A stretch of DNA of 64,000 nucleotides from a virus, in the IMG/VR virus record IMGVR_UViG_3300026538_000054, positions 32,001 to 96,000 of that record. One strand, written 5' to 3'. The notes beneath the pieces are model-generated. The model did no database searches. It worked only from the letters and a program-made list of their open reading frames with translations, and was not told the DNA's origin. Of this stretch, positions 27,317 to 63,984 are shown in pieces. Within the stretch, counting starts at the first letter, position 1. Each line of letters begins with the position of its first letter. The position numbers were made by a program, and so were the translations under genes.

Positions 27317-29029
27317 ATGCTTGCCCTTGACGATCCTGACCTGCGCGCCTTTATCGCGCGCACTGCTGCCTCGACCTACTCGCTTGGCAAGGAGGCGGTC
27401 TCCCTGGTCAAGAAGGGAGGCACGCCCGAGACGACCCACGCCCTGGCCGGCAGGCTCTACCTCTCCCGCTCGGGGTGGCTGCTGCTCAGCGTCCCCAACG
27501 CCCTGGTGCGAGGCGCCTTCGACGCCCTGGACGAGCCAGGATTGGAGCTGCCTTCGGGTCACAATGGTGGACGACTAAACTCTCACATCTCTGTTATTTC
27601 GCCCCGCGAGATGGAGAAGGCGAACCTTGACCCTGAGGCCGTGTCCGAACGCGGACACTCGTTCCACTACACCCTGGGCCCGATCCGCACGGTCAGGCCG
27701 AAGAACTGGGAAGAGATCGAGCGTGTCTGGTACATCCAGGTCAAATCGCCTGAGCTGGAGAAGTTGCGTTTGTCCTACGGTCTCTCGGCCAGGCCTAATA
27801 ACGACAAATTCGATCTGCATTGTACGATAGCGGTAAGGCGCCGAGGTGTTCTACGAAGTAATACCGAAGTCAAGAAGGAGGCTGCTACGGACAGAGCGAC
27901 GCGTGGAGAGCGCGTGTTCACCAGTATGGTCCCGCGCGCTGCGTTGGCTTACGTTCGGCGGCATGGGTTGCTGGGTGGCAAGGCCCTCATGGACCGGCCG
28001 GACGCTCTGGCCGCTGCGGCCAGCAGTAGAGGGCTTAGCACGGGCGAACTCAGGGCTGATATCCAGCGCACCCTGGACGGCTGGAAGAGGGGTGAGGCTG
28101 GCGGGCCGAATGTCTTTTTCCATCTCCCGCCTGACGAGACGCAGTTTCCGGACAATCACCCCTTCAGGAAGCATGACCTGGTGCCGGTGAGGGTTCGGTT
28201 CGACGAGCTTGTGCGCGACGCTCCGGACACCAGGGTCTACGGCATGGAGCTGGAGCCCTACGACCCTGCCAGGCACGTCACAGGCATGGAGCGGCACCGC
28301 TATCTGAAGCCTGACGAAGTGGATACCTTTCTCAGCAAGTCTCCGCGGGACCTCTGGGCCAACTACGCCGACCCTGACAAGAGCGGCTACTACGCCCCCA
28401 ACGTACCGCACGCTTCGCTGCACACGCCGGACGGCACCGTGCCGGCGAGATATCTGGACTTTCCCGATGAGCTTGATGAGGGGCCCAGGCTGCCAACGGC
28501 GCTTAGAGGCTTGAAGTCCGCGGGCGCTTCTTCACCGGTCGAGAAGGCCAAGGAGCTTCTCGCCTCCTGGGGTGATGACGCGCCGTCCATCTACCTTCAC
28601 CAGACCGACAAGAAGGCCTGGCTGATGGTCGGCGACTGGCATGAGAGCGAGTCGGTCAAGAAGTGGTGTGAGGAGCTGGAGAAAGCCCTGCCCGGCTACG
28701 AACTACAGTGCGAGAGCGAGGCCCAGCCCGTGTCCGTGAAACCAGGGAAAGAGAAGGACGGCTGGCTGCGTGTGAAGACCGCTGCCGAGGTGCTGGGCCT
28801 CAGGGTCACCCGTGTCGCTCTTGGCCTGCCACATGCTCTTGCTTGTTTGAGCGGGTGCAGCGAATCGCCCGCCCAGGAAGACAAACCGCCCGACATCTAC
28901 GACAAGACGGAGGCGTTGAAGCACCCGACCACCGCGGCGGATGAGCCACCGCCACCGGCCGACGAAGACGAGTCGCCCGCCGAAGAGCTCTTTGAGGACC
29001 TCGAAGACCTTGACGACGCTGTGAGATAA
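27317..29029 (+). CDS. Multidomain protein: 2H phosphoesterase plus possible ADP-ribosyltransferase-like domain
   Basis: HISV (27584) and HCTI (27818) 2H motifs; second region YVRRHGLLG...NVFF...GTVPARYL is ART-like (weaker). Confidence 0.7.
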   Translation: MLALDDPDLRAFIARTAASTYSLGKEAVSLVKKGGTPETTHALAGRLYLSRSGWLLLSVPNALVRGAFDALDEPGLELPSGHNGGRLNSHISVISPREMEKANLDPEAVSERGHSFHYTLGPIRTVRPKNWEEIERVWYIQVKSPELEKLRLSYGLSARPNNDKFDLHCTIAVRRRGVLRSNTEVKKEAATDRATRGERVFTSMVPRAALAYVRRHGLLGGKALMDRPDALAAAASSRGLSTGELRADIQRTLDGWKRGEAGGPNVFFHLPPDETQFPDNHPFRKHDLVPVRVRFDELVRDAPDTRVYGMELEPYDPARHVTGMERHRYLKPDEVDTFLSKSPRDLWANYADPDKSGYYAPNVPHASLHTPDGTVPARYLDFPDELDEGPRLPTALRGLKSAGASSPVEKAKELLASWGDDAPSIYLHQTDKKAWLMVGDWHESESVKKWCEELEKALPGYELQCESEAQPVSVKPGKEKDGWLRVKTAAEVLGLRVTRVALGLPHALACLSGCSESPAQEDKPPDIYDKTEALKHPTTAADEPPPPADEDESPAEELFEDLEDLDDAVR

Positions 29030-29051
29030 GCGAGTTCTTTTACGGCCTCGG

Positions 29052-29163
29052 CAACAAGGCCGCCAGAGAGGCCTGCGTGTAGGATAGCGACCGGAAACTG
29101 TTTTCCGGAAAAGATTGGCTTCCCTCGCTAGTCTACACACAGGCCTCTCTGGCGGCCTTGTTG
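29052..29163. repeat. 31-bp inverted repeat enclosing TTTTCCGGAAAA
   Basis: CAACAAGGCCGCCAGAGAGGCCTGCGTGTAG / CTACACACAGGCCTCTCTGGCGGCCTTGTTG. Confidence 0.75.
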
Positions 29164-29207
29164 TCAGGAACGGAAAAGCAGCTTACGGTGCTGCTACGAT
29201 GACCGCT

Positions 29208-29315
29208 AGACCAAAGCCCTCCGCAATGGGCTAAAAGCTGCGACGGAGGCGGGAATACGCGACGACGCGACGTTCTACTTGCCAAAGCCCTCTGTAGCGG
29301 GCTAAAAGCTGCAAT
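29208..29315 (+). CRISPR. Mini-array: repeat, 34-bp spacer, repeat
   Basis: Repeats 29208-29244 and 29279-29315. Confidence 0.8.
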
Positions 29316-29393
29316 GTTAGGTGGCGCCTGTGTGGCCTTCCCGGCGGCCCGGTTGCCAGGGACGGAAAAGATCGACTCTAGAGGGGCACGCTC

Positions 29394-29993: not shown

Positions 29994-30020
29994 GACCAGC
30001 ACAGGTGCTCATTCCGACCA

Positions 30021-30060: not shown

Positions 30061-30105
30061 CGGTCTATCTCAGGCCGGCTTTTTCGTTTCATGCAAGAGG
30101 TGGAC

Positions 30106-30546: not shown

Positions 30547-31338
30547 GTGCCCGAAGAGGAATGGCTGCTGCCCGTCGGGGCGCTGGAGAAGCTGAACTAC
30601 GTGTCGCCGAAGTCATCGTTCAGGAAGCTGCGACTCTTCGCCTGCGCGTGCTTTGCCGCAGTGGACATTCCTCTGTGCGAGGCGGAAGAGAGCCAGATCG
30701 ACTTCGGCGAACAGGCCGCGGAGTCGCCGAATACCTGCTTCGGCATCAATATGCGATTCGAGTGGCTCGCCTGGCGCGAGGCGAACAACAAGCCGACAGG
30801 AGGTACACAACTACCGTGCATCCATGATGATCCGCTTAGCGCCGCGGAAGAGTCGCTTTTCGATTCCGCCTCCCTTGTCGCAGCCGTGCTGGATTGCCCA
30901 GCGACTGGCCACCTGTACGCCGAGAAGATTACCTCCAGGCTCAGGTCCCTGGTGTGGGACCTCTTCGGCAACCCGTTCCGGCCCGTGGAGATCAGGAAGA
31001 AGTGCCGGCGTTGTGCAGGCGTCGGCAGGTACAAGACAGTCGTCTATGTCGGCGACGGGAAAAGCGGGAGGATGGATCGCCACTGCCAGGCCTGCCGGGG
31101 CGTCGGGTGGTTTCAGCCTGACTGGCGCTCCTCTCGCGTGATCTCTCTGGCACAGCCGGCCTACGACGAGCGACTCCCTTCAAGAGAACTGGACACGGCA
31201 CGGCTCTTTGTCCTCTCCGACGCCATGGAGGAAGAGGCCGACGCGAGCCTTGATATCAGACTGCTCGAGCACCTACGCTCACCAGGGCCGCACTACCGCG
31301 GGTGCTGGGCCCTGGACCTCATCCTGGGAAAGGAGTGA
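30547..31338 (+). CDS. Gemmata-type expanded family protein (RKLRLFAC...GNPFRP...GCWALDL) with DnaJ-like CxxCxGxG insert
   Basis: Family motifs visible in translation. Confidence 0.75.
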   Translation: MPEEEWLLPVGALEKLNYVSPKSSFRKLRLFACACFAAVDIPLCEAEESQIDFGEQAAESPNTCFGINMRFEWLAWREANNKPTGGTQLPCIHDDPLSAAEESLFDSASLVAAVLDCPATGHLYAEKITSRLRSLVWDLFGNPFRPVEIRKKCRRCAGVGRYKTVVYVGDGKSGRMDRHCQACRGVGWFQPDWRSSRVISLAQPAYDERLPSRELDTARLFVLSDAMEEEADASLDIRLLEHLRSPGPHYRGCWALDLILGKE

Positions 31339-31344
31339 TTTCTT

Positions 31345-31992
31345 GTGACCGAGCAGGAATGGCTGAATAGCAACAACCCTCATGCGATGTTGGTCTGGAT
31401 GAAGCAAGAGGGGCGGGCTGTTAGCCTGCGCACGTTGCGGCTGTTTGCCGCGGGCTGTGCGAGGAACGTCAATCCGCCTCGCGGAAGCAGCCTTATCGCC
31501 CAGGGCTTGAGCGTGGCGGAGCGTTACGCCGACCGTCAGGCCACCGCTCGTGAGCTTGCAAACGCCTCGCTTCAAATGCCCAAGGGCTGTATCCAGGGTA
31601 GGGCCCTGTGGGGCAATAGAGAACTGTGGGCGGGAGTGGAGGACATTCTGTGGTATCGCAGCTCAATGGGGCTGATGGACGCCTTCTTGTTGCGGGATCT
31701 GGTTGGCAATCCGTTCAGGCCCTGGTTGAGCGAGCCCGCGACGGTGAACGAACTTGATGCCCGTCCCGGCGCGCAGATTTTTCTTTACCGCTGGTCGCAC
31801 GCCAACGACCATCTGGCCTGGTGCCTGGCGGATGTTTGTTACGAGAAGAACGACTGGAGGTCCTTGCCCGTCATCGCTGACGCCCTCGAGGACAACGGCT
31901 GCGAGGCCGCAGACGTCCTGACGCACCTTCGGTCCCCCGGCCCTCACGCCAGGGGATGCTGGGCCCTGGACCTGGTCCTTGGAAAGTGGTGA
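31345..31992 (+). CDS. Gemmata-type expanded family protein
   Basis: TEQEWL, LRLFAAGC, GNPFRP, ADALEDNGC, HARGCWALDLVLGK. Confidence 0.8.
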   Translation: MTEQEWLNSNNPHAMLVWMKQEGRAVSLRTLRLFAAGCARNVNPPRGSSLIAQGLSVAERYADRQATARELANASLQMPKGCIQGRALWGNRELWAGVEDILWYRSSMGLMDAFLLRDLVGNPFRPWLSEPATVNELDARPGAQIFLYRWSHANDHLAWCLADVCYEKNDWRSLPVIADALEDNGCEAADVLTHLRSPGPHARGCWALDLVLGKW

Positions 31993-32027
31993 GAGAGAGG
32001 CGCGCAAGCGCCCTCTTTTTTTAGCTG

Positions 32028-35876: not shown

Positions 35877-38800
35877 ATGGCTAACCTACCGCCGCTTCAA
35901 GGCCCCGTCTCCGCGACGCCGTCAGGCCATGGCGCCCCTGTGACCATGCGGGCCTTTGACGATCACGCCGCGACCAGGGAGGCCATTTATTCCAAGACCC
36001 TGAAGGCCCTGGAGAAACTGCCGCCTGTCGAGAACGCGCGACACTCCTTGCGCGTCGAGAGGCCCGCCTACGCAGGCCCCGGCATGGTCTCCCTGGCCGA
36101 GCAAAACAGGGCCATTCTTGAAGGGCGGTCGCTTTTTCGCCGGCTCAAAGGCGACGTGGTCCTCACGGACAAGGCCACGGGCAAGGAGCTCGACCGAAAG
36201 AACGTGACCATCGCCCAGGTGCCCATGTACACCCAACGCGGCACGTTCATCTTTAACGGTTCTGAAAATGGATTGTCACACCAATTGAGGCTGCAGTCAG
36301 GCATCTACGCCCGAATACGCAGCACGGGCGAGGCGGAGTCGCACGTCAATGTACGGCCAGGCAAAGGCCTCTCTCACCGCTACTTCCTGGACCCGGAGAC
36401 CGGCCTCTTCAAGCTCCAGGCTGGACAGGCCTCTGTGCCCCTGGTCACCGTGCTGCGCGCGATGGGTGCGACAGACAGGGAGCTGCAAGAGGCCTGGGGC
36501 CGAGAGCTCTTCTCCGTTAACGCCAAGAAGGACGACCCGCGCTCCATCGAGAAGCTCTACGAGAAGCTGGAGCGACGCCCTGACAAGCAAGCCCCTGCCG
36601 AGGGCAAGCGCCTCAGGGTGGCCGAGCTCATGGCGAAGATGGAGCTTGACCCCGAGGTCACGAAGCGGACGCTGGGCCATCCCCATGCCACCCTGAGCAA
36701 GGAGACCATCCTGGCCGCCACCAGGAAGTTGCTCCGAGTGGCCAGGGACGAAGAAGAGCCGGACGACCGAGATCACCTGGCCTATCAGACCTTCCACGGC
36801 CCGGAGGACATGATCGCGGAGAGGGCTGAGCGGTCATCGCCCCTGTTCCACCAGCTTTTGTGGAAGGCGACGCGCACGGGCAAGCTGGACCATGTTCAGC
36901 CCAACTTCCTGTCCAAACATGTTCAAGGGGCCATCCTTGACTCAGGCATTGGTAACAACCTGGAAGAAATTAACCCATTAGAGTTCCTTAACAACGCGCA
37001 CAAGATAACTCGTATGGGCCGAGGCGGCATCGCCTCAATTGACAGTATACCTTCGTCCAGTAGAGCGGTTCACTCGAGTCACGTCGGTTTCATTGACCTG
37101 GTCTCGACCCCGGAAAGTCAACGTGCCGGCGTAGACACTCGCGCCGGGTTCAAGGCCCTGAAGGGCGACGACGGCCGGCTCTACACGCCGGTACACAACG
37201 CCAGGACTGGCAAGGAAGAGCTCAAAAGCCCGCAGGACCTGGCGGACGCCGTCCTCGCCTTCCCAGGGCAAATGCAAACCGGCAAGAAGCGCGTGACCGC
37301 CCTGGTCAAGGGCAGGGCGACCAGTGTGCCTCGCGAAGAGGTGGATTATGCCCTGCCCCACATGGAGCACGCCTTCACACCTACGTCCAACCTGGTCCCG
37401 CTCAAGGCCATGAGCAAGGGCCAGCGGGTGAGCATGGGTGGTCGGTTCCTGGTTCAGTCCGTGGCGCTCAAGGACGGTGAAGCGCCCCTGGTCCAGGGCC
37501 TTGTTCCCGGCACCAACAAGTCCTTTGAAGAGCTCTACGGACGCCACGTCGGCGCTGTCCATGCCAGAGATGATCAAGGCGGTCGCGTGGTGAAAGTTAC
37601 GCCCGACGGCATCACGGTCAAGTACGACGACGGCAAGACCGAAGAACACGAACTGTACAATCACTTCGTACTGAACAGGAAATCGCTTCTGCACAATACG
37701 CCAGTGGTGCGAGAAGGTGACAGGATTGAAGCGGGCCGTCCGCTGGCGAAGTCCAACTATACCGATGCCCAGGGCCGCGTGGCTGTCGGTAAGAACCTGC
37801 GCACGGCGTACATCGCACATGGTGGAGGTTCTTCCGCGAACTACGAGGATGCCTGGGTCATCAGCGAGTCGGCGGCCAAGAAGTTCACCAGCGACCACGC
37901 CTACCAGCACGCGATCGAGTGGGAAGACAACCACAAGCGCGGCAAGCGCACCTACCAGGCGCTCTTCCCTACGAAGTACGACCGAAAGACGTTGGAGCTC
38001 CTGGACGAAGATGGCGTGATCAAGCCAGGGACCAAGGTTGAGTCCGGTACGCCCCTGGTCCTGGCCGCCAGTCAGAAAGACCCTGATCGCAAGACCGTTC
38101 ACCAGAGTAGAGGCGGTGGCTTCTCAGACGCTTCTCTTGTCTGGGACCACCACGCTCCTGGAGAGGTGGTCAGCGTCGCCAAGACGGACAAGGGCGTCAA
38201 CGTTGTAGTTAGGTCATTTAATACGACTGAGATAGCGGACAAACTTTGTTACGACCCTGAGACGGAGGTGCTGACCAGCCGCGGCTGGGCGCGCGTAGCT
38301 GAGCTAACCACCGCCGACGAGGTCGCCACGTTGGGGCCAGAGGACCGGATCGAGTACCTCCAGCCTGTCGGTATCCACCGCTACCACCACATCGGCCGGA
38401 TGTATCGGCTGGAGACGACGCAGATCGATCTACTGGTCACCGAGAACCATCACCTGTACGCCTGCCGCAGGAATCGGTCTGAGTACTCTCTCCAGACTGC
38501 GTCCGAGCTATTCGGGAAGACGTTTCGGCTGAAACGAGACGGCGTGTGGACTGGCGCCTCGCCGGACTTCGTCAAGATGCCGGACCTCGTTGTTAAGGCT
38601 GGGCAGTTCGGCCACGGTGAGCGCGCCCTGGATGGGCCGAGCTTGCCGACCGACGTGTTTGTCATGCTACTCGGGATGTACCTGTCGGAGGGCTGTACGT
38701 TCAACCAGCCGAGCTACGGGTCGTACGGCATCGATATTACGCAGATCAATCCTGGCGGGCGCGCCAAGCTGTTTCCGGCGCTGGATGCCGCTGGTCTGAA

Positions 38801-41381
38801 GTACAACGCCACGTCGAACGGCGCGCGAATCTATAGCAAGTCGTTGATGGCCTATTTCAACCAGTTTGGGCGCGCCAAGGACAAGTTCATCCCTGAAGAG
38901 GTGTTTTTCTGGGCCACGGAGCACCTCAAGTCTCTTTACTACTGGCTCATGTGGGGCGATGGCTGTGAGGGTGGTACGGGCCACTCTTACTGCACCACGT
39001 CGCCTCGACTGGCCGACGACTTTCAACGGCTCCTGCTCCACATCGGGATGTCAGGCAACATCAAGAGGGTCGAAGCCAGGCGCGGCGTGATCAAGGGCAA
39101 GGAGTACGACTTCGCCCCTCGCTACGACGTTTCTGTCTTCCGGTCGAAAAACAGGCCAGAGATCAATCACGGTCACTGGAAGACCCAAAACGGGCAGAGA
39201 GAGGCCTGGGAGGAGTACTCAGGCGAGGTCTTCTGTCCGCAAATGCCGAAGAACCACGTCATCTATGTCCGCCGAAACGGCAAGCCGGTCTGGTGCGGCA
39301 ACAGCGGGCTTTACGGAGACAAAGGTGTTATATCGGGAATCATGAAAGATGATGAGATGCCTCATGATGAGAATGGCAAACCATTTGAGATGCTAGCTAA
39401 TCCTTTAGGAGTTATATCAAGAATTAACGCTAGCCAGGTGGCAGCGGCTGTCCTGGGCAAGATCGCCCAGAAGACGGGCCAGCCGTACAAGGTGGAGGAC
39501 TTCCCTCACGACAAAGAGGACATCACGGGCTGGGTGCAGCAAGAAGCCAAGAAGCACGGCGTCAAGGACCTGGAGACGGTGATCGATCCTGTGACAGGGA
39601 AGCGCATTCCCAACGTGTTGACAGGCGTTCGCTACTATATGAAACTACACCACTCGGCTGAGGGAAAGGCTTCTGCGAGGGGCCTTGGCGCCTACGACGC
39701 TGAAGGAACGCCTGCGCGAGGCCCTGGCGAGGCGGCTCAGGCCAAGCGACTGGCGCTCATGGAGACGAACGCGCTGCTCAGCCATTCCGCGCTTGACGTC
39801 CTCAAGGACGCCAGATTGGTTCGCGGTAACCAGAACGTCGAGCTCTGGGCGAGCTACATGGGCGGTGACCACCCGTCGACGCCGCCGGTGCCTTTTGTCT
39901 TTCAGAAGTTCGTGAATCAGCTCAAGGCCGCGGGCGTGAACGTGACGCGCAAGGGTGCGCAGACCAGGATCACCGCCCTGACCGACAAGGACATTGATGA
40001 GCTGGCGGGCGACAGGGAGCTGGGAAACGCCGAGACAGTCCACTGGGGCGAGGACATGCGGCCTGTCAAGGGCGGCCTGTTCGACGAGCAACTCACGGGT
40101 GGTCACACGGGCCAGAAGTGGGTGAAATTGGTTCTTGCCGAGCCGATGCTGAACCCGGTGATGGAAGAGCCAGCCCGTCGCCTCCTAGGCCTGACCCAGG
40201 CGCAGCTCGAGAGCGTGATCAAAGGAGAGCGAGAGCTTCAGGGCAAGAAGGGCCCGGAGGCCATCTCGCACGCGCTTGCGTCTATCAACCTGGAGAAGGG
40301 CATCTCGCGCGCCAGGGCGGATATCGCTTCGGGCAGGAAGACCTTGCGAGACGACGCCGTCAAGCGGCTGAGCTACCTGAAAGCGGCGCAGTCTACTGGC
40401 GTTCACCCTGGCGACTGGGTACTGAAGGCCGCCCCTGTTCTTCCTCCTATCTTCAGGCCGGTCTCCGTGATGCAGGGCACGGGCGGCACTCTGATTGCTG
40501 ACGCCAACGTGCTCTATCGCGACTTGTTCGAGTCGAACCAGGTCCTCAAGGGCCTGAAGGGGCAGGTTGACGACACCGGTGCCGAGATGTTGTCGGTCTA
40601 CAACGCGCTCAAGGCCGTTCAGGGGCTGGGTGATCCCGTCAACGCCAAGACGCAAGAGAAGAAGGTCAAGGGCCTTCTGGACACGGTCTTCGGCTCTTCC
40701 AGCAAGCACTCCGTGGTGCAGTCGAGGCTCATTGGTACGCCTGTCAACAACGTGGGTAGGGGCGTGGTGATCCCTGACGCCGATCTGGACATGGATGAGG
40801 TAGGCATACCGGAGGCCCACGCCTGGAAGGTCTACGAGCCTTCGCTCATCAGGTCGCTTGTCCGTCGCGGCATGGGCCGTGTTGACGCCCTGGCCCACGT
40901 CAGGGACAAGAGCGATGTCGCTAGGCAGGCCCTTCTGGCCGAGACGGAGAAGGGGCCGATTCTGATGACCAGGGCCCCTGTGCTTCATCGCTTTGGCATC
41001 TTGGCCTTGCTGCCGCGGCTGGTAAAGGGTGACGCTGTTAAGGTTAATCCTTACATAGTGGCAGGCCAGGGCATGGACTTTGACGGTGATGCTGTCAACT
41101 ATCATCTCCCTTTAACGCAAGAAGCTAAGCAAGAGGCTATGGAGAAGATGCTGCCCAGCAAGAGCCTTCTCGCCGTGAGCGACCTACACACACCGATGTT
41201 CAACGTCCGCCAGGAGTTCCAGGCCGGTCTCTACCGCATGACCCACGCCGAGAACAAAGAGAAGCGAGCGCGCACCTTCGCGACCATGAAGGACCTTCAC
41301 AAGGCCTACCTGCGCGGCGAGATCGAGGCGGACGATCCGGTGACGGTCATGGACCATGGCGGCCAGAGCGGTGCGAAGTAG
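35877..41381 (+). CDS. Phage multisubunit RNA polymerase: beta fused to N-terminal catalytic half of beta' (intein-containing)
   Basis: GTFIFNG, TPESQRAG, NYEDAWVIS, DKL|SGLYGDKGV, NPLGVISRIN, PVLPPIFRP, TRAPVLHR, GMDFDGD. Confidence 0.95.
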   Translation: MANLPPLQGPVSATPSGHGAPVTMRAFDDHAATREAIYSKTLKALEKLPPVENARHSLRVERPAYAGPGMVSLAEQNRAILEGRSLFRRLKGDVVLTDKATGKELDRKNVTIAQVPMYTQRGTFIFNGSENGLSHQLRLQSGIYARIRSTGEAESHVNVRPGKGLSHRYFLDPETGLFKLQAGQASVPLVTVLRAMGATDRELQEAWGRELFSVNAKKDDPRSIEKLYEKLERRPDKQAPAEGKRLRVAELMAKMELDPEVTKRTLGHPHATLSKETILAATRKLLRVARDEEEPDDRDHLAYQTFHGPEDMIAERAERSSPLFHQLLWKATRTGKLDHVQPNFLSKHVQGAILDSGIGNNLEEINPLEFLNNAHKITRMGRGGIASIDSIPSSSRAVHSSHVGFIDLVSTPESQRAGVDTRAGFKALKGDDGRLYTPVHNARTGKEELKSPQDLADAVLAFPGQMQTGKKRVTALVKGRATSVPREEVDYALPHMEHAFTPTSNLVPLKAMSKGQRVSMGGRFLVQSVALKDGEAPLVQGLVPGTNKSFEELYGRHVGAVHARDDQGGRVVKVTPDGITVKYDDGKTEEHELYNHFVLNRKSLLHNTPVVREGDRIEAGRPLAKSNYTDAQGRVAVGKNLRTAYIAHGGGSSANYEDAWVISESAAKKFTSDHAYQHAIEWEDNHKRGKRTYQALFPTKYDRKTLELLDEDGVIKPGTKVESGTPLVLAASQKDPDRKTVHQSRGGGFSDASLVWDHHAPGEVVSVAKTDKGVNVVVRSFNTTEIADKLCYDPETEVLTSRGWARVAELTTADEVATLGPEDRIEYLQPVGIHRYHHIGRMYRLETTQIDLLVTENHHLYACRRNRSEYSLQTASELFGKTFRLKRDGVWTGASPDFVKMPDLVVKAGQFGHGERALDGPSLPTDVFVMLLGMYLSEGCTFNQPSYGSYGIDITQINPGGRAKLFPALDAAGLKYNATSNGARIYSKSLMAYFNQFGRAKDKFIPEEVFFWATEHLKSLYYWLMWGDGCEGGTGHSYCTTSPRLADDFQRLLLHIGMSGNIKRVEARRGVIKGKEYDFAPRYDVSVFRSKNRPEINHGHWKTQNGQREAWEEYSGEVFCPQMPKNHVIYVRRNGKPVWCGNSGLYGDKGVISGIMKDDEMPHDENGKPFEMLANPLGVISRINASQVAAAVLGKIAQKTGQPYKVEDFPHDKEDITGWVQQEAKKHGVKDLETVIDPVTGKRIPNVLTGVRYYMKLHHSAEGKASARGLGAYDAEGTPARGPGEAAQAKRLALMETNALLSHSALDVLKDARLVRGNQNVELWASYMGGDHPSTPPVPFVFQKFVNQLKAAGVNVTRKGAQTRITALTDKDIDELAGDRELGNAETVHWGEDMRPVKGGLFDEQLTGGHTGQKWVKLVLAEPMLNPVMEEPARRLLGLTQAQLESVIKGERELQGKKGPEAISHALASINLEKGISRARADIASGRKTLRDDAVKRLSYLKAAQSTGVHPGDWVLKAAPVLPPIFRPVSVMQGTGGTLIADANVLYRDLFESNQVLKGLKGQVDDTGAEMLSVYNALKAVQGLGDPVNAKTQEKKVKGLLDTVFGSSSKHSVVQSRLIGTPVNNVGRGVVIPDADLDMDEVGIPEAHAWKVYEPSLIRSLVRRGMGRVDALAHVRDKSDVARQALLAETEKGPILMTRAPVLHRFGILALLPRLVKGDAVKVNPYIVAGQGMDFDGDAVNYHLPLTQEAKQEAMEKMLPSKSLLAVSDLHTPMFNVRQEFQAGLYRMTHAENKEKRARTFATMKDLHKAYLRGEIEADDPVTVMDHGGQSGAK
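38247..39302 (+). mobile_element. Intein with LAGLIDADG homing endonuclease in RNAP beta
   Basis: CYDPETEVLT...TENH...LGMYLSEG...WGDG...VWCGN|S. Confidence 0.92.
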
Positions 41382-44568: not shown

Positions 44569-45471
44569 ATGACTTTGAGACAATGGCTTGATGGCCAGGC
44601 CCTGTGGTCGATGTTCACGACGGCCGAGATCAGTGAGCGAAAACAGCGACTTCTGGTCTGTGTGCTGGCCCAAAAAGCGCTGCGAAAATATAAGGCTAAT
44701 GCGAGCAGAAAGGCCATCGAGACGTCTCTGCGTTACGCCGACGGCCTGGCTGACTCGGCAGAACTGTACCGAGCCTTTGTCGAGGCCAGGTCCCTTTGCA
44801 ACTCGACTTCGCTGCCGCTGTCTAGCTGCAAACTGCTCGCTATGCGCATAGCGGGCTGCTGCGCCAGCTTGTCCCTGACCCACTTTTTCAGTGACAACTG
44901 GTTGCCGGCTCAGGGCGACGTGGGCTGGGAGGCCCTGCGATGTGCCATGCGCGAGGTTGTCGAGGCGCCTTTCGCCCTGAGGCGACTGTGCATCTTCAAG
45001 CCGTCCAGGAGGCGCGCCGACAGGTTCCTGGCCTCGCTGGTGGAGAGGAATGAAACGACCCAGACGGCAGAGAAGCGCAAGAAAGGCGTGGCATCTTCCA
45101 CCCTGGTGGAAGAGAGGTGGAAGAAGGTCGACTGGCTCTCCAGGGCCGCGCTTGACATCGCCAGGTTGATCTACGAAGAAGACCGCTTCGAGGACCTGCC
45201 CATCCTTGCCGACGCCCTGGAAGACGCCGGCTGTACAGAGGAGCACCTGCTCATGCACCTGAGAGGCAAGTCGCAATGCCCCGCCTGTCTGGAGAGCCGC
45301 CAGGCCCTGGCGGCCATCGAGCAAGTGGCTGCGCAGGCACGGTCGAAAGGCGTCAGGACCAGTGGCGCCGGTCAGGTCTCTTGCAGCGAGTGCAACCAGG
45401 GCTGGCGGCCTCTTCAAGGCCCGCACTTCAAGGGCTGCTGGGCCCTTGATCTCATCCTCGGAAAGGAGTGA
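44569..45471 (+). CDS. Gemmata-type expanded family protein
   Basis: ERKQRLLVC, LPILADALEDAGC, HFKGCWALDLILGKE. Confidence 0.8.
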   Translation: MTLRQWLDGQALWSMFTTAEISERKQRLLVCVLAQKALRKYKANASRKAIETSLRYADGLADSAELYRAFVEARSLCNSTSLPLSSCKLLAMRIAGCCASLSLTHFFSDNWLPAQGDVGWEALRCAMREVVEAPFALRRLCIFKPSRRRADRFLASLVERNETTQTAEKRKKGVASSTLVEERWKKVDWLSRAALDIARLIYEEDRFEDLPILADALEDAGCTEEHLLMHLRGKSQCPACLESRQALAAIEQVAAQARSKGVRTSGAGQVSCSECNQGWRPLQGPHFKGCWALDLILGKE

Positions 45472-49594: not shown

Positions 49595-52417
49595 ATGCCC
49601 CTTAACAGCACCGCCGGCCAGGCCCTCGTGAACGCCGTCCTCCCTGAGGAACTGCGCAACCACGAGCGCGCCCTGGACAAGAAGGGCATGGCCTCGCTCA
49701 TGAAGGAGGTGGCCAGGAAGCACCCTGAGCAGTACCGAGAGGTCCTCTTTCGCCTGGGGAAGCTAGGCCATCTCACCGCCTACCACACAGGGTCTCTCTC
49801 CTTTGGCCTGGAACACATGCGCACCGCGGTCAGCGCCAGAGACATGAAGAGAAAGCTGCGCCAGGAGATCGATCAGATCTATGACCACCGTTCTCTATCT
49901 CAAAAAGAGAAAGAACAGAAGATCGTTGAGCTGGTGAGCTCCTATCAAGCTCCTCTCGAGAAGGCCGTCTACGACGAGTCCCTTGCCGAGGGAAACCCTC
50001 TTGCTCTGCAAGTTCTCTCAGGGGCCAGGGGCAACAAGACCAACCTGCGCTCCCTGAGAGGCGCTGATCTTCTCTACGTAGACCACAAGGACCAGCCCGT
50101 CCCCATCCCTATCTTGCGATCCTACTCCGAGGGCCTGACCCCGGCTGACTACTATGCCGGCAGTTTCGGAGCGCGAAAGGGCGTCATTGACGTCAAGCAG
50201 GGCGTGGCTGATTCGGGCTTCGCCTCCAAGTTGCTCGTCCAGATGTCTCATCGCCTGGTGACCACCTCTCTGGATCATCCCGAGCCACCCTCTCGTATCA
50301 GGGGCCTGCCTGTTGACCTTGACGACCCTGACAACGAAGGTGCTCTCCTCGCCCATGACATAGGGCCGTTCAAGAGAAACACCGTCCTCACCCCTGACGT
50401 GCTTCACCGGCTCAAGCAAGAAGGCCACAAACACCTCCTTGTGAGATCGCCTACCGTCGGCGGCCCGCCTGACGGAGGAGTGTACGCCCGTGACGTTGGT
50501 ATCAGAGAGAAGGGCGTGATATCTCCCGTAGGAGATTTCGTCGGCATCGCCGCCGCACAGGCTCTCTGCCTAGCTGAAGGCACGTTGGTCACCCTGGCTG
50601 ATCTCACTTTCAAGCGCATCGAAGAGGTCGCTCCGGGAGACCTTATTCTGGCGGCCAACAGCAAGGGTGAGACCGCTTCGGCCAAGGTGAACAGACGTTT
50701 CCTTAACGGCCCCCGTGCGTGTTTACGTTACTTCTGGTCGAATCAGGAGCATTCTGTTCTTGCCACGAGCGAACACAAAGTGCTCAGGCCTGACAAGACC
50801 GTCAGGCCCTTCGACCAGACCTCCGTGGTCTTGCTTCATACGCCTCAAGGGCCTACTCCAGCCGCCCTGGATGAGCCTCTTCATCAAGAGCCAATCATCC
50901 TGCCCACCTATGACCTGGAGATCGACCACCCCGAGCATCTCTACGTGCTCAAGGGCGGCTTGATCGTGGCCAACTCTGAGCCTCTTACCCAGAGCACGCT
51001 GGGCAGCAAGCACTCGGGGGGCGTAGCTGGGGCCAAGAAATCAGGGCCTACGGGCTTCAAATTGCTCTCTTGCTTGGGAGAAGGCACGTTGGTGCGCATG
51101 GCCGACGTGCCTTCCAAGGAGATTGAGAAGATCAAGCCGGGTGACAGGGTCATCGGTGCGAACTTGGAGGGGGGATGGTTCCCCGTCCAGGTCAAGAACG
51201 TCTTTGACAACGGCCAGCGCCCTTGTCGCACGTTCACCTTTGAGTCGATGCTTGGTGAGGAGAGCCTCACTGCCACGGACGACCATCTCGTACTGGCTCA
51301 GGCGCCCTGCTACAAGATCGACAAGACCCTGGCTGACAAGGGCCTGAAACGGTTTGATGAGTGGGAAGGCGGCCTCAAGGTCTCGCTGGGAGAGATACGC
51401 ACGGCGCATAACTTGCCTCACCCGTTGGCGCCTGTGGGCTACAGGCCTGTGAAGGCCGCCAAGGAGCCTGGTTCTCCAGGCGTTCGTGTCGAGCTCCTCT
51501 ACGCCACCCCTGAGGTGCTTCTCCCTACCTACGACCTGGAGGTGGATCACCCTGACCACCTCTTCGTCCTGGCCAACGGCCTGGTGGTGAGCAACTCGCA
51601 GATTCAGGTTCCCAAGGCCTTCCCATCTGGAGCTTCTCACTCTCAAGAAGATGGCCGCGTGCAAGCCGTCTTCCCTGCGCCCCAGGGCGGTAACTACGTG
51701 CAGGTCAACGGCCACAAGCACTACGTGGCCCCTGGCTTCGACGTCCTGGTCAAGCCAGGCGATGAGGTTGAATCTGGCGATGTTCTCAGCGAGGGAGTAC
51801 CGAACCCTGCGGAAGTGGTGGCTCACAAGGGCGTTGGAGAAGGCAGGGCCTACTTCGTCCAGGCGTTCAGAGACTCGTTCAAGCGCTCAGGCCTGCAGGC
51901 GCATCGCCGGAACATCGAGCTGGTCGCCAGGGGCCTGATTGACCATGTCAGGCTTACCGAGGAGCATGGGCACTACTCCCCGGATGACGTAGTGCAGTAC
52001 TCCCGTCTGGAGAGGGACTGGCAGCCAAGAGACGGTGCCAAGGAAAAGGCCCCCAACGAGGCCATGGGGCACTACCTGGAAGCGCCGGTGCTGCACTACT
52101 CCATCGGGACGAAGATCAGGCCCAGCGTGGTGAAGCGCCTGTCTCAGTTCGGCGTCAAGAGCGTGTTGGTGCATCAGCAACCACCGCCTTTTGAGCCTGA
52201 AATGGTCAGGGGGATGGAGAACCTGACCCATGACCCCGACTGGATGACGAGATTTCTGGGGCCTTATGTGAAAAAGAACTTCCTGAAGGGCGTTGCCAGG
52301 GGTGACATCTCCGACGAGGCCGGAAGCAGCTACGTCCCTTCTCTGGCCAGGGGAGCGGACTTCAACCGTCTGCCGCCTGTCAAGGGCTTTGACCCCAGGT
52401 CTCTGGGCCAGCTCTAA
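49595..52417 (+). CDS. Phage RNA polymerase beta' C-terminal subunit (two mini-inteins)
   Basis: SGARGN, SYSEGLT...GARKG (bridge helix), VGIAAAQAL|SEPLTQ...KHSGG (trigger loop), HRRNIELVAR. Confidence 0.93.
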   Translation: MPLNSTAGQALVNAVLPEELRNHERALDKKGMASLMKEVARKHPEQYREVLFRLGKLGHLTAYHTGSLSFGLEHMRTAVSARDMKRKLRQEIDQIYDHRSLSQKEKEQKIVELVSSYQAPLEKAVYDESLAEGNPLALQVLSGARGNKTNLRSLRGADLLYVDHKDQPVPIPILRSYSEGLTPADYYAGSFGARKGVIDVKQGVADSGFASKLLVQMSHRLVTTSLDHPEPPSRIRGLPVDLDDPDNEGALLAHDIGPFKRNTVLTPDVLHRLKQEGHKHLLVRSPTVGGPPDGGVYARDVGIREKGVISPVGDFVGIAAAQALCLAEGTLVTLADLTFKRIEEVAPGDLILAANSKGETASAKVNRRFLNGPRACLRYFWSNQEHSVLATSEHKVLRPDKTVRPFDQTSVVLLHTPQGPTPAALDEPLHQEPIILPTYDLEIDHPEHLYVLKGGLIVANSEPLTQSTLGSKHSGGVAGAKKSGPTGFKLLSCLGEGTLVRMADVPSKEIEKIKPGDRVIGANLEGGWFPVQVKNVFDNGQRPCRTFTFESMLGEESLTATDDHLVLAQAPCYKIDKTLADKGLKRFDEWEGGLKVSLGEIRTAHNLPHPLAPVGYRPVKAAKEPGSPGVRVELLYATPEVLLPTYDLEVDHPDHLFVLANGLVVSNSQIQVPKAFPSGASHSQEDGRVQAVFPAPQGGNYVQVNGHKHYVAPGFDVLVKPGDEVESGDVLSEGVPNPAEVVAHKGVGEGRAYFVQAFRDSFKRSGLQAHRRNIELVARGLIDHVRLTEEHGHYSPDDVVQYSRLERDWQPRDGAKEKAPNEAMGHYLEAPVLHYSIGTKIRPSVVKRLSQFGVKSVLVHQQPPPFEPEMVRGMENLTHDPDWMTRFLGPYVKKNFLKGVARGDISDEAGSSYVPSLARGADFNRLPPVKGFDPRSLGQL
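50567..50974 (+). mobile_element. Mini-intein 1 (136 aa)
   Basis: CLAEGTLV...TSEHK...TYDLEID...LIVAN|S. Confidence 0.9.
51071..51595 (+). mobile_element. Mini-intein 2 (175 aa)
   Basis: CLGEGTLV...TDDHL...TYDLEVD...LVVSN|S. Confidence 0.9.
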
Positions 52418-57316: not shown

Positions 57317-58030
57317 ATGCCCGTAGCAGTTCAATCCCTGGGCGACGTTCTTATTCAAGAGGTGCTTGAGCACCCCGAGGACGACGTCCCCCGCCTGATC
57401 TACGCCGACTGGCTCGCCGAGAACGATCAGCCCGTCAGGGCCGAGTTCATCCAGCTCCAGTGCCGGCTGGCCAAAGAGCAGCCCGACTACGCCCTTGACA
57501 CTGGAACTTCACCCAGGGCCTACACGTCCTCGGGCGACCCTCGTATCAGGCGGGCCTACGCGCTCTTCCAGGAACTGGCCTTTCCTACCGTCAGCAAGGG
57601 CCCGATTACCTTGACTTCCTTTCAATGGACCGCGGCCACCTGGCGACGAGGCTTCGTGGAGGGCCTCTCCTTGAGCTGCTCGGAATTCACGAGGCTAGCG
57701 CGGCTAGTGTTCAAGCTGCACCCGGTCACGCGCGTGCAGCTCAAAGACAGGCAACCGACCTGGTGCCCGGGATGGAACGGTTACTGGAGTTGGCGCGTTA
57801 CGGGTGACGAGGTCCCGTTTTTTAGCGACGGCTTCTTACTGCCTCACGAAATCTTCAATCTCCTCGGCCCTGGGCACAGGGAGTCGCAACACGGTCAGTG
57901 GCGGCACTTTGACAGCAAGGAGAGGGCCGTACAAGAGCTCTCTCAGGCCTGTGTCGCCTTTGGCATCACCAAGAGGAAGGAGGGCCTCTCTGAGGCCCTG
58001 TCGGCAGAAAGCGAGAAAGATACCTCATGA
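57317..58030 (+). CDS. TIGR02996-domain protein
   Basis: EVLEHPEDDVPRLIYADWLAEN...RAEFIQLQC...WRRGFVE...HPVTRV. Confidence 0.9.
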   Translation: MPVAVQSLGDVLIQEVLEHPEDDVPRLIYADWLAENDQPVRAEFIQLQCRLAKEQPDYALDTGTSPRAYTSSGDPRIRRAYALFQELAFPTVSKGPITLTSFQWTAATWRRGFVEGLSLSCSEFTRLARLVFKLHPVTRVQLKDRQPTWCPGWNGYWSWRVTGDEVPFFSDGFLLPHEIFNLLGPGHRESQHGQWRHFDSKERAVQELSQACVAFGITKRKEGLSEALSAESEKDTS

Positions 58031-59680: not shown

Positions 59681-60087
59681 ACGTTTACATCTACTGCGGC
59701 GAGCTCTACTGCGAGGCGTGCGGCAACGTCATGCGCGACGCCTTGAAGAGGATCGGCCGCGCCCCTGCCAACCCTGACGACGAGACGAGCTACGATTCTG
59801 ACTTCTACCCCAAGGGCCCCTACGCCGATGCGGGGGGCGAATCAGACGTCGTTCACCACTGCGGCAGCGACCACAAGTGTCGCGAGCCTGTCGAGATCGG
59901 TGGTAGCCGCTACGGAAAGTTCCTCGAAAACGCCTTGACGACGGCCGGCGTCGCGGAGCTCGAGAGGATGCTTGCGGAAGACCTGGCCAGTCAGGCCGAC
60001 CCGGTCCTACAGTTCTGGGCGGACTACTACCGGAAGGCCGGATACGACATTCGGCAATACGAGAAAGGGAAGCAGGAAGAGAGATGA
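59677..60087 (+). CDS. Hypothetical phage protein
   Basis: YCEAC...YDSDFYPKGP...GGESD...HC. Confidence 0.6.
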   Translation: MNVYIYCGELYCEACGNVMRDALKRIGRAPANPDDETSYDSDFYPKGPYADAGGESDVVHHCGSDHKCREPVEIGGSRYGKFLENALTTAGVAELERMLAEDLASQADPVLQFWADYYRKAGYDIRQYEKGKQEER

Positions 60088-60890
60088 CAGAGGCCCAGTG
60101 GCTTGAGAGCAAAGACCCTTTCGACCTGTTTATGGTGGCGTCCAGCGACGCGCCGGCAAGAAGAAGCGATAGAGAACTGCGTCTTTTCGCCTGCGCCTGC
60201 TGCCGTAGCGTTTGGCACTTGCTTGGCGACGAGAGAAGCAGGCGCGTGGTCGAGGTCGCCGAGAGGTTTGCCGACGGCGAGGTGAGCAGAGAGGAACTGG
60301 GCAGGGCACTCGTCTGCGGCCCTGGTGGTTTCGTTAGCCACTCTCAGCGCACGGACGAACTGGTGCGGCTGTTCTACGCCACGGCCGAGCCCGGCTTCTT
60401 CGTCTTCGCCGGACAACTGCGCAACCTTGGCCGCGGCTGGGAGGGCGAGATGCCGGACAGTGACTGGCACGAGCGCTGGCTGCCCGTGTGGGCCAACTTG
60501 CTCAGGGACGTGGTCGGCAACCCCTTCAGCCCACTCCCTGTCAAGGTGGGCCTTTATCAACCATCCGAAGAGATCACCCGCCTGGCCACGACGGCCTACG
60601 AAGAGCGCTGCCCTGTGTCGGGCGCACTGGAGCCTGCGCGACTCGCCATCCTCGCTGATGCCGTTGAAGAAGCAGGCTGCACGGAAGAGTTATTGCTTCA
60701 TCACCTTCGCGACATGGAGCCGTGCCAGGAGAGGACCAGCCAGGGCTACGAGTGCAAGAACGGGCAGCTCTTCTACCTCAACTCAGGCGGCGCGACTTAC
60801 CATCGCTGTAAAGGGACAGGCTGGATGCGTCATCGCGGTGCTCACGTTCGTGGCTGCTGGGCCCTGGATCTCATCCTGGGAAAGGAGTGA
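60084..60890 (+). CDS. Gemmata-type expanded family protein
   Basis: MTEAQWL, RELRLFACACCR, GNPFSP, LADAVEEAGC, HVRGCWALDLILGKE. Confidence 0.85.
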   Translation: MTEAQWLESKDPFDLFMVASSDAPARRSDRELRLFACACCRSVWHLLGDERSRRVVEVAERFADGEVSREELGRALVCGPGGFVSHSQRTDELVRLFYATAEPGFFVFAGQLRNLGRGWEGEMPDSDWHERWLPVWANLLRDVVGNPFSPLPVKVGLYQPSEEITRLATTAYEERCPVSGALEPARLAILADAVEEAGCTEELLLHHLRDMEPCQERTSQGYECKNGQLFYLNSGGATYHRCKGTGWMRHRGAHVRGCWALDLILGKE

Positions 60891-60894
60891 CCAC

Positions 60895-61791
60895 TTGACC
60901 GAGCGAGAGTGGCTGGGGAGCACGCGGCCCGAGAAGTTACTACGGTGGCTTGACAGTACGACCAGAGCGGACCGCAAGCCCACTCACAGGGGCATGCGTC
61001 TTTTCGTATGCGCCTGTTGCCGCAGCCTGTGGGACAAGTTGAAAGACCAACGACTTCGCGACTCGGTGGAGACCGCCGAGCTTTTCGCCGATGGCGAGGC
61101 TACGGAAAGGCAGTTGGAGCTTGCACACAAAATGGCCTGCCCGGCGGTTAGCAAAACGCATAGTAGCGCGCCTAACGAGTATTTTTGCGTCTGGGCCGCC
61201 CTGATGACGTCGAAGCCTGGTGACCGGTTCCATGACTTCCTAACCGAGCTTGAGCGCTGCCCCTCTGATGATCACCCCCTGCCAAAGGCGACGCAGCTTG
61301 AGTTGATCCGAGAGATCTTCGGCAATCCTTTCCGGCCGGCCATTGCGGACTGCAACGAGGCCCTGGACGGCTCGTGCGAGGCTCACGGCTGCGACTTCCA
61401 GAAGACAGGCGAGGCCACGTCCATATGCCCTGGCGGCAGAGGATGGTTTCGTACACGAATCGCCTGTACACCTACTGTTCGTGATCTTGCGTTAGCCAGC
61501 TACATGGATCGGTCCAGCCAGGATCGTGCTGAGCTCGACCCTTCCAGGCTCCTGGTCCTCGCAGACGCCCTGGAGGAAGCGGGCATGCGGCCCGTTACCG
61601 GCCGTACCGTCTCTCAGGTCGTCCAAGCAAGACAACAAGCCGTCATGGGCGGCTGCTGTGAGCGCTTCGCTGATCACTCGGCTTGTGACTGCCTGGAGCT
61701 GGCCGTTCCTGACGGCGTGCTTGAGCACCTGCGCTCGCCTGGTCCCCACTACCGCGGGTGCTGGGCGCTTGACTTCGTCCTGGGCAGGTAG
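60895..61791 (+). CDS. Gemmata-type expanded family protein
   Basis: TEREWL, RLFVCACCR, GNPFRP, LADALEEAG, HYRGCWALD; TTG start after AAGGAG. Confidence 0.8.
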   Translation: MTEREWLGSTRPEKLLRWLDSTTRADRKPTHRGMRLFVCACCRSLWDKLKDQRLRDSVETAELFADGEATERQLELAHKMACPAVSKTHSSAPNEYFCVWAALMTSKPGDRFHDFLTELERCPSDDHPLPKATQLELIREIFGNPFRPAIADCNEALDGSCEAHGCDFQKTGEATSICPGGRGWFRTRIACTPTVRDLALASYMDRSSQDRAELDPSRLLVLADALEEAGMRPVTGRTVSQVVQARQQAVMGGCCERFADHSACDCLELAVPDGVLEHLRSPGPHYRGCWALDFVLGR

Positions 61792-61899
61792 CGACGGCCC
61801 GCCTCATGGTCGTTGGTGCGACGGACGAGCAGTCGGGTGAGGCCTGGTACAATTCTCCGCCGTGGCTGCTTCGAGTTGCTGGCCGTAGGGAGGCGGAGC

Positions 61900-62235
61900 A
61901 TGTCAGACCAGGCCGTGATGGGCTTGATCACTGCCGTGGTGAGCTTGCTCGGGACGATGTTTACAGGCATCCTCACGTACCTCATGGCCAGGCTCAACGC
62001 TCGCGCCGCCGTCGCCGCGACGGCCGTTGAGCAGGTCAAGAAGGACCTGTCCACCAGCCAGGGCGTGGTCAACGAGAAGCTCGACAAGGCCGAGAAGATA
62101 GCCGAGAAGACGCACACTTTAGTTAACAGTAATATGGGTGTGCAGCTCGAGATGCACGCGCTGCTTGCCAGGCGAATGGCGGACAAGACCCACGAGCCGG
62201 ATGACATCGCGGCGTTCCTGGTCGGCAAGCTGTAA
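61900..62235 (+). CDS. Holin-like membrane protein
   Basis: Single N-terminal TM, coiled coil, HTLVNS motif. Confidence 0.5.
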   Translation: MSDQAVMGLITAVVSLLGTMFTGILTYLMARLNARAAVAATAVEQVKKDLSTSQGVVNEKLDKAEKIAEKTHTLVNSNMGVQLEMHALLARRMADKTHEPDDIAAFLVGKL

Positions 62236-62248
62236 GGGAGCCAGCGGT

Positions 62249-63067
62249 ATGAGGATCTTTGCGTGCGTTCTCCTGCTACCATTCCTGCTTCTCGGCCCTG
62301 CCGAGACCAGGAGGGCAGGACAAGCTCCCACGGCCGAGAAGCGACCGCGTGGCGCATTGAGTTTGAAGCTCGACGGCAACGTGCTGCTCATCGTGCAGTC
62401 GATGCCTTGTACGGTGACGGCCCCCGCCGGCGCAGACTTCTACATGTGGAACTACCCTGAGACCGTGAAGGCCTCAGCCGACGACAACGTCCTGGTGGTG
62501 AAAGACGCCCCCAAGGGCGCTTCGACGATCTCGGTCCTCTCCGTTACCATTGACTTTCAGCTCGACAAGGACGGGAAGGTCAAGAAAGAGATCAAGAAGG
62601 AGACCGGGTCGATCGTCTTGACCTACGGGAGTGGCCCTGAGCCGAAGCCGCCCGTTCCGCCAGGACCGCTTCCGCCCGATCCTCCAGGCCCTGATGACGC
62701 GCCGATCAAGGAGCCAGGCTTTCGCGTCTTGATCGTCTACGAGTCAGCCGAGTTGACCAAGATGCCGTCTGCGCAGCAGTCCGTCCTCTACGCCAAGAGC
62801 GTCAGGGACTACCTGAACGCCAAGTGCGTCGTCGGCCCGGATGGGAAGACGCGTGAGTGGCGCATCTGGGATGCCGACGTGGATACCTCTGCCGAGTCCA
62901 AAATCTGGCAGGGCGCGATGAAGCGGCCCAGGAAGTCCTTGCCCTGGATCTTGATCTCCAACGGCAAGACGGGCTTTGAAGGCGCGCTTCCTGCCGACAC
63001 GACCAAGGCGCTCGAGCTCCTGAAGAAGTACGCCGAGACGTCGACGACGAAAGGTGGCCAGAGATGA
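62249..63067 (+). CDS. Exported protein with Pro-rich linker and thioredoxin-like C-terminal domain
   Basis: Signal peptide, PEPKPPVPPGP linker, VLIVYES...LPWILI. Confidence 0.6.
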   Translation: MRIFACVLLLPFLLLGPAETRRAGQAPTAEKRPRGALSLKLDGNVLLIVQSMPCTVTAPAGADFYMWNYPETVKASADDNVLVVKDAPKGASTISVLSVTIDFQLDKDGKVKKEIKKETGSIVLTYGSGPEPKPPVPPGPLPPDPPGPDDAPIKEPGFRVLIVYESAELTKMPSAQQSVLYAKSVRDYLNAKCVVGPDGKTREWRIWDADVDTSAESKIWQGAMKRPRKSLPWILISNGKTGFEGALPADTTKALELLKKYAETSTTKGGQR

Positions 63068-63984
63068 TGCTACGGCCCAACGAGTTGCTGATCGGCGACC
63101 ACAACTACGCTGAGCACGTCGTCTCCGTGGTGGACGGGGAGCAGAAGGCCAGGGGCCTCGTCCCGCGGGACTTCAAGCTTCACCCTCAAGGGTGCTACGG
63201 CAGCGTCCAGGCCGTGGACATCCCGCTTATCCCCAGGGGCGAATGGAGCGAGCGGATCAAGGACAAGGTCGCGCAGCAGTCGCAACTCTCGGACATCAGG
63301 CTGGTCGGCAACAACGGACAAATAATACCCTCCCTCGACCAGGGAAATAAGGGTTATTGCTGGGCGCACAGCACGACGCAGGGAGTTATCATCGCCCGTG
63401 CGGTCAGCAATCAGCCTTATGTTCCGTTAAGTGCCTATGCCGTGGCTTGTGTTTTGAAAAACTTTCGGGATGAGGGCGGTTGGGGCGCTCTCTCTTGCGA
63501 CTTCATCTCGACGCGTGGCGTGCCCAGCCAGGAGAAGTGGCCGCAGCAGTCGATGAGCCGCAGCAATGACAACCCCGACACCTGGGCCAACGCGGCGCTG
63601 CACAAGATCCAGGAGGGCTGGGTCGACCTGGGGTCCTCGGTCTACGAACGCAACCTCTCCTTCGACCAGACGATCAGCCTGCTGCTCTCGGATGTTCCGG
63701 TGGTGATCGATCTGAACTGGTGGGGGCACAGTATTTTGGGCTTGGACGCGGTGGACGGCTTGTCGATGCGCAAACAGACGAGGGCGAGGTCTGGCAAGCG
63801 CGCTACGCTGCAGGAGTTCGAGTTAGCCTGGGGCGTGAACGAGGTGACAGGCGGCTACGGCGTACGCATACTGAACAGTTGGTCAGATGCGTGGTCCGAT
63901 CGTGGCATGGGAACGCTCTCCGGCAGCAAGGCGATCCCGGACGGTGCGGTCGCTCCGCGAGCCATCACGGCCGCGGCAGCGTAG
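63064..63984 (+). CDS. Papain-like (C1-type) cysteine peptidase
   Basis: DQGNKGYCWAHS, WWGHS, ILNSW catalytic Q/C/H/N pattern. Confidence 0.85.
   Translation: MMLRPNELLIGDHNYAEHVVSVVDGEQKARGLVPRDFKLHPQGCYGSVQAVDIPLIPRGEWSERIKDKVAQQSQLSDIRLVGNNGQIIPSLDQGNKGYCWAHSTTQGVIIARAVSNQPYVPLSAYAVACVLKNFRDEGGWGALSCDFISTRGVPSQEKWPQQSMSRSNDNPDTWANAALHKIQEGWVDLGSSVYERNLSFDQTISLLLSDVPVVIDLNWWGHSILGLDAVDGLSMRKQTRARSGKRATLQEFELAWGVNEVTGGYGVRILNSWSDAWSDRGMGTLSGSKAIPDGAVAPRAITAAAA

Follow-up and report, generated by a model that had tools for sequence, protein, structure and literature searches.

The phage recorded as IMG/VR entry IMGVR_UViG_3300026538_000054, of which we analysed positions 32,001 to 96,000 (64,000 nucleotides, hereafter the window), has lost its codon bias locally, in short patches of A/T-ending codons situated at intein landing sites. 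This loss is real and specific to the phage's lineage. It was traced mainly in the gene for a fused RNA polymerase (RNAP), where patches coincide with positions at which homologous proteins carry inteins, and we consider it very probable that the patches represent a footprint of homing endonucleases encoded by inteins. Plain coordinates refer to the window; the RNAP, 2H, holin-like and peptidase genes described below, with their patches, sites and inteins, lie on its plus strand.

Results

Codon use in the patches

The initial annotation named eleven stretches at catalytic motifs where G/C-ending codons switch abruptly to A/T-ending ones. For each stretch, the number of A/T-ending codons was tested against a phage-wide expectation matched for amino acids. 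Six stretches are strongly enriched: 39310-39430 (29 of 38 codons vs 7.8 expected, P 2e-13), 41030-41140 (21/36 vs 7.0, P 2e-7), 63315-63470 (24/52 vs 10.4, P 1.5e-5), 27810-27870 (13/21 vs 4.4, P 5e-5), 36950-37080 (21/44 vs 9.2, P 6e-5) and 38200-38250 (11/18 vs 3.4, P 7e-5). Since the expectation is matched by amino acid, protein composition fails to account for these strong patches. Four other stretches are weak, namely 62115-62140 (6/9), 36260-36290 and 27570-27600 (7/11 both; P 1.5-3e-3 for each of the three) and the one around 63870 (6/14, P 0.05); they were chosen by eye, so their significance is unsafe once scanning is allowed for. At the peptidase His motif, around 63730, there is no enrichment (3/14, P 0.54).

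The patches do contain more A/T-ending codons, but describing them as AT-rich is an overstatement. GC content at third codon positions (GC3) falls from 0.81 to 0.53 inside them, GC content at first and second positions stays nearly the same, and codon choice becomes near-random, with four-fold degenerate sites almost evenly occupied (T.32, C.24, A.18, G.27).

Over the whole phage, 22 patches with z>=4 were found, as against 3.2 in synonymous shuffles. The patch rate is 6.2 per 10,000 codons in the phage, 3.0-5.9 in the bacterial contigs of its bin and 6.9 in GC-rich loci of related phages. Patchiness as such is thus ordinary, and it is the location of the patches that needs explaining. Other assemblies agree on them (one mismatch in 25.5 kb between the ENA assembly and the phage, none in the contigs of run X5), so the patches are no assembly artefact.

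Patches and intein insertion sites in the RNAP gene

The gene for the fused beta and N-terminal beta' parts of RNAP (35877..41381, 1834 amino acids) is recognized by Pfam and NCBIfam RNAP matches, and the gene call in the ENA assembly is identical. Intein sites were listed from an alignment of 119 homologous RNAP proteins together with more than 150 loci. Intein-like insertions occur in homologs after amino acids 359, 386, 392/394, 413, 603, 790/1142 (the place of the phage's own intein), 1153, 1182, 1262, about 1285, 1730 and about 1740.

Within 12 codons of these 12 sites the A/T residual is +0.234, compared with -0.034 elsewhere. Of 1481 circular shifts, 4 give a value as high; when the region of the own intein is left out, the number is 4 of 1381. 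The excess stays level between codons -15 and about +12 relative to the sites and is then gone, being confined to -15..+15. Ten of the 12 sites are individually significant before correction, neighbouring sites having codons in common.

Four empty sites, after amino acids 359, 386, 392/394 and 413, underlie the patch at 36909..37160 (14/30, 13/29, 14/29 and 9/30 A/T-ending codons, respectively, vs about 6). The strongest patch (39303..39467; 29/38 vs 7.8) comprises the downstream flank of the own intein and the empty sites after 1153 and 1182, where homologs have inteins. Around the DFDGD motif, the patch at 41022..41141 covers the empty sites after 1730 and about 1740 (16/29 and 15/28 vs about 5.5), inserts being present in eight homologous proteins. 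Two patches missing from the initial annotation also lie over sites occupied by inteins in homologs: 37641..37730, after amino acid 603 (inteins in several homologs; 14/30 vs 6.3), and 39618..39785, after 1262 and about 1282-1288 (13/29 vs 5.7 at 1262).

The phage's own RNAP intein (38247..39302, amino acids 791-1142, from Cys to Asn) was identified by a LAGLIDADG_3 match and an intein hidden Markov model. Its codon bias is normal (71 of 336 codons A/T-ending vs 69.3 expected). In its upstream extein flank (38202..38246), 10 of 15 codons end in A or T vs 2.8 expected, and in the first codons of the intein 2 of 14.

Placement of the patches at conserved motifs was confirmed only in part, as equally conserved blocks without intein sites have no patch. 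The A/T-ending fraction is 0.48 within 15 codons of the 12 sites, 0.22 in equally conserved intein-free blocks of the family and 0.19 in blocks equally similar to cellular RpoB/RpoC. In a logistic model, proximity to inteins improves the log-likelihood by 45 units; conservation improves it by 10, or by 0.8 once proximity is included. The proposed relation between GC3 and residue conservation is absent away from intein sites (rho 0.05). Inteins persist at conserved motifs (Swithers 2009, PMC2814812), and this preference makes the patches seem to follow catalytic motifs.

We also considered conservation itself as the driver of the patches. It was ruled out, the intein-free conserved blocks being unshifted and conservation adding next to nothing beside intein proximity.

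Peptidase gene, resident inteins and NrdJ

The patch of the papain-family (C1) peptidase gene (63064..63984, Peptidase_C1 match) extends over amino acids 84-144 (63313..63495), as judged by A/T-ending counts. It prompted a search for longer homologs, which revealed 58 proteins with an insert between Tyr98 and Cys99; the phage gene accordingly has an empty intein site just before the catalytic Cys99, between 63357 and 63358. Many of the 58 homologs have LAGLIDADG domains, and the three peptidase inserts scanned contain Hint and LAGLIDADG domains. The patch overlaps this site, yet its peak is 15-45 codons downstream. In a brief literature search, we found no report of inteins interrupting phage papain-family peptidases at this Cys.

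Seven inteins reside in the phage itself, in RNAP beta, the second beta' gene (two), PolA, the large terminase, gene g170 and an AAA ATPase. The 15-codon extein flanks of these inteins contain 76 A/T-ending codons vs 42-45 expected, a number reached by none of 3000 random site sets. The adjoining intein ends show background codon use, the shift halting at the splice junction. Both inteins of the second beta' gene are mini-inteins. The first (50567..50974; Hint and intein_Cterm matches) has barely shifted flanks (9 vs 6.1-7.8), and the flanks of the second (51071..51595) are shifted (13 vs 6.3-8.0). In NrdJ, a patch at amino acids 327-364 spans the positions at which nrdJ is split in roseophages CRP-118 (about 345) and CRP-7 (356).

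Judging by the inserts scanned, the elements at these sites carry predicted LAGLIDADG domains, and some are mini-inteins. At L224:8908-11435, the large terminase intein has a LAGLIDADG open reading frame in another frame.

Patches with no intein known

Two patches belong to the 2H-SAK phosphoesterase domain, one at the first His motif (27536..27604, z 3.7) and one at and after the second (27806..27889; 13/21, P 5e-5). No 2H intein was found among the top 149 proteins, 52 distinct loci and 38 matching records, which are overlapping sets ranked in a way that favours unsplit domains. A weak patch (62092..62166, z 3.5) covers the HTLVNS motif in a gene for a 111-amino-acid membrane/coiled-coil (holin-like) protein, for which no alignable relatives were found. 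The weak patch at 36260..36290 (7/11, P 3e-3 before correction) corresponds to no insertion in RNAP homologs and is either unexplained or due to chance. At the Asn motif of the peptidase, where no intein is known, the patch is also weak (63862..63915; z 3.1; 6/14, P 0.05).

Further strong patches were observed in ThyX (amino acids 286-307; gene at L224:12063-13139) and in a tyrosine integrase (window 25305-25388), with z of 4.5 and 4.7. No split ThyX homolog was found among the best 30 of 1032.

Relatives, sister strain and protein change

Homologous RNAP, 2H and peptidase genes have no dips like those of this phage. In relatives L018 and L220-L223, resident inteins are AT-richer than host genes and their flanks are often intermediate, resembling co-conversion tracts. 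The GC-rich L102, L106, L162/L164 and L223 each have a lone A/T patch, located at a single intein site (z 3.8-5.1); overall, such patches are not clearly above chance.

Two contigs of a sister strain (about 94% identity, low cover) cease aligning within patches, at 37042 and 27843, which is only a hint; the contig at the second 2H patch has its first 29 letters unaligned, a weak sign. Among the matches listed for this strain, none lies in the patches.

Excess amino-acid change at the sites was not seen. The ratio for the phage branch ranks 26th of 60 against matched blocks, and departures from conserved columns amount to 16% vs 13%.

Phage genome and other features

The window is part of contig C51 (199,122 bases), binned with a bacterium, whose 100-base terminal overlap indicates a complete circular phage genome. 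This jumbo phage is present in soil metagenomes and its genome is GC-rich. Two genes with TIGR02996 domains, together with relatives binned with planctomycete genomes, suggest a planctomycete host. Besides the fused RNAP, the phage encodes the second beta' part, the 2H-SAK phosphoesterase and the C1 peptidase. Searching directly with individual proteins turned up no close relatives.

The RNAP is split anew, beta being joined to the first half of beta' (35877-41381) and the second half lying 8 kb off (49595-52417). The RNAP family is rich in inteins: its first gene has 12 sites or more and its second gene 3-4. A paralog family (30547-31992, 44611-45471, 57317-58030 and 60084-61791) has a common GCWALDL-type terminal motif, some members containing TIGR02996 domains. 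A free-standing HNH endonuclease gene lies on the opposite strand at L230:2879-3946. Near-identical intergenic sequences form two duplicate pairs, 41871-41965/43057-43151, with a sigma-70-like promoter, and 41441-41516/42061-42136.

Discussion

Intein LAGLIDADG nucleases cut empty alleles during mixed infection. Relatives of the phage carry such inteins at catalytic motifs, and their endonucleases would cut its empty alleles when both phages infect one cell. Recurrent cutting would bring about synonymous turnover over some 40-45 bp on either side of each site until the G/C-ending bias is lost, the protein sequence being preserved throughout by purifying selection. That nucleases have been active against this lineage is what we infer. 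That the patches lie at intein sites, that they do not depend on conservation, that their codon choice is near-random, that the shift stops at the splice junction and that protein change is not in excess are all directly supported. As to location, the idea of homing endonucleases, one of several raised by the initial annotation, was borne out.

Several observations weigh against this interpretation. The list of RNAP sites was compiled after the profile had been seen, with every intein-like insert taken; the non-intein inserts at amino acids 231-260, which were excluded, have no patch. Sites 413 (9/30 vs about 6) and 1288 (9/29) are not significant on their own and remain weak exceptions. In the second beta' gene, the site near amino acid 210 (6/29) has no patch, nor has the phage's own AAA ATPase intein (flanks 2 vs 6). 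No intein is known for the patches in the 2H and holin-like genes, at 36260 and at the peptidase Asn motif. The effect is also restricted to one lineage: 105 distinct RNAP genes average 0.005, the phage lies at z 6.0 among them, and its closest intein-rich relative, L221, is flat (0.18 vs 0.18). Comparison across relatives, a check that the initial annotation had proposed, showed no rise of synonymous divergence close to intein sites when 33 pairs of other family members were used (15 of 33).

One candidate cause of the turnover is that silent variants resisting the cut were selected, which we rate slightly ahead of the two alternatives below but at less than even odds. That the changes are silent speaks for such selected escape, as does the rescue of phage PhiKZ by a silently recoded RNAP copy (PMC11620839). 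Of the original proposal of escape by silent mutation, the location fits homing nucleases; the selective part is less secure, since a comparable trace would be expected from mutagenic repair or from co-conversion (PMC5378118). Escape in its pure form is weakened by the width of the patches, 80-90 bp, about three times that of LAGLIDADG sites (24-31 bp), so that the change is not confined to the size of a recognition site. It is weakened also by the tolerance of LAGLIDADG nucleases for many synonymous changes and by protein change that shows no acceleration. Rather doubtful is the broader proposition that selection has led the lineage to recode nearly all its intein landing sites by silent change, local loss of codon bias then mapping the targets of homing nucleases.

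Homing might instead have acted through neutral mutagenic repair, in which cutting and resynthesis make local mutation more frequent, silent changes persist and the codon bias wears away with no escape selected; we judge this somewhat unlikely. Patch width in excess of the recognition site, random and undirected codon use and the protein change on the phage branch, which is no faster (rank 26 of 60), agree with it, and it is one of the two mechanisms retained for fungal introns in PMC5378118. No strand asymmetry of the single-strand-deamination type is seen, though (A:T upstream vs downstream, P 0.19), and intein-rich relatives, presumably cut as well, have no dip.

A third form of the homing model, in which short flanks from a phage of lower GC come in each time an intein is gained or precisely lost and remain as co-conversion scars, seems unlikely. 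The flanks in relatives are indeed intermediate (+0.046, standard error of the mean 0.017, 33 sites), as in L223 (flank 0.34, intein 0.37, gene 0.09), and GC3 ranges from 0.31 to 0.99 within the family. In the phage, however, the own RNAP intein stands at 0.21 and its flanks at 0.62, above the listed inteins of relatives (0.29-0.41), with the shift ending at the junction. No donor was found among 157 genes or in a search by protein region, there is no excess codon sharing, and the longest identical run is 26 nt near sites vs 24 elsewhere.

Codon choice for function (slow codons in active sites or where splicing occurs, or promoters embedded in the sequence) is very improbable, as is clustering by chance, and for the strong patches this explanation is already largely refuted. 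Patchiness in general is ordinary, and short weak patches could be chance. Nevertheless, the cellular rpoB/rpoC of the bin are unshifted at the same columns (0.11 vs 0.10), the homologous phage genes lack dips, empty sites are affected and not occupied ones alone, and a promoter scan detected no promoter-like site in the RNAP gene.

Escape from guides of a CRISPR system, be it the phage's own Cas12m, that of rival phages or that of the host, is the least credible explanation. The phage does encode a Cas12u1/Cas12m protein (E 5e-75; L227:8315-10198, minus strand), just outside the window, beside an array of about 18 repeats some 3.7-5.0 kb upstream of the window, with about 35 dispersed repeat copies. 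This system could be what marks the lineage out, and CRISPR escape could account for the 2H and holin-like patches. We compared the 52 spacers of the phage with the patches and their homologs by blastn, ungapped scan and translation; the best DNA and peptide matches were no better than in shuffled controls. None of the 52 matches a patch, so the view of the patches as a footprint of this guide system is unsupported. Two array spacers match the phage itself, one perfectly (38/38 at 5632-5669, in the gene at 5224-5724) and the other (35/37) about 64 kb upstream of the window, outside called genes. The perfectly targeted gene has no patch (5/30 vs 6.2). No further CRISPR array was found in the bin, and the phage repeat was not found in viral contigs. 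Guides would not be expected to show an evident preference for intein sites above other conserved motifs, and conserved intein-free motifs are not recoded. Moreover, recoding lifts TT/AA from 7.4 to 12.5 per 100 nt, though protospacer-adjacent motifs of Cas12m are T- or C-rich (PMC11013384).

The closest parallel to the footprint is found in fungal mitochondria, where density of single-nucleotide polymorphisms (SNPs) increases beside mobile self-splicing introns (Repar and Warnecke 2017, PMC5378118), mutagenic repair and co-conversion being left undecided. Both cases involve mostly synonymous change, concentrated in conserved genes at some tens of bases or less from homing sites, with protein constraint intact and no donor found. 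Here, however, inteins of a phage are concerned, codon-bias loss in one genome is seen rather than SNP density, and most empty sites of a gene are affected in one lineage only. In Torulaspora, a LAGLIDADG-type nuclease, WHO, likewise acts against a conserved gene, FBA1, whose target varies mainly at third positions, and 8 of 24 synonymous changes conferred resistance (bioRxiv 10.64898/2026.08.13.744650). That system has a 28-bp site, positively selected amino-acid change and tested cleavage, whereas our patches measure 80-90 bp, protein change is no faster and the case is known from sequence alone. A conserved RNAP motif of a rival is also the target of the homing nuclease PhiPA3 gp210, which attacks the RNAP gene of the jumbo phage PhiKZ (Birkholz 2024, PMC11620839), and the phage under attack was rescued by a plasmid-borne RNAP copy carrying 17 silent changes. 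Unlike here, gp210 is an HNH nuclease located in an intron, natural escapers carried single non-synonymous changes and the recoded allele was engineered. Swithers 2009 (PMC2814812) covers the placement of inteins, not codon change at empty sites. In plants, exon bases adjoining the homing site of the cox1 intron look foreign, as in our patches (PMC3192709); that co-conversion tract was traced to the intron donor, while here the flanks are unlike the resident intein and the search for a donor came up empty.

Read as a homing-endonuclease footprint, the patches would provide, from a single genome, a readout of where these enzymes have acted. By way of the peptidase patch, an intein site has already come to light at the catalytic Cys of that papain-family enzyme. 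If nearly all landing sites have indeed been recoded, the 2H and holin-like patches would point to unsampled elements or nucleases. Whether selected resistance, repair error or imported DNA lies behind divergence at homing sites could also be tested directly in this phage, and materials for such a test exist: natural recoded alleles, their G/C-ending counterparts in relatives and a candidate nuclease for each site.

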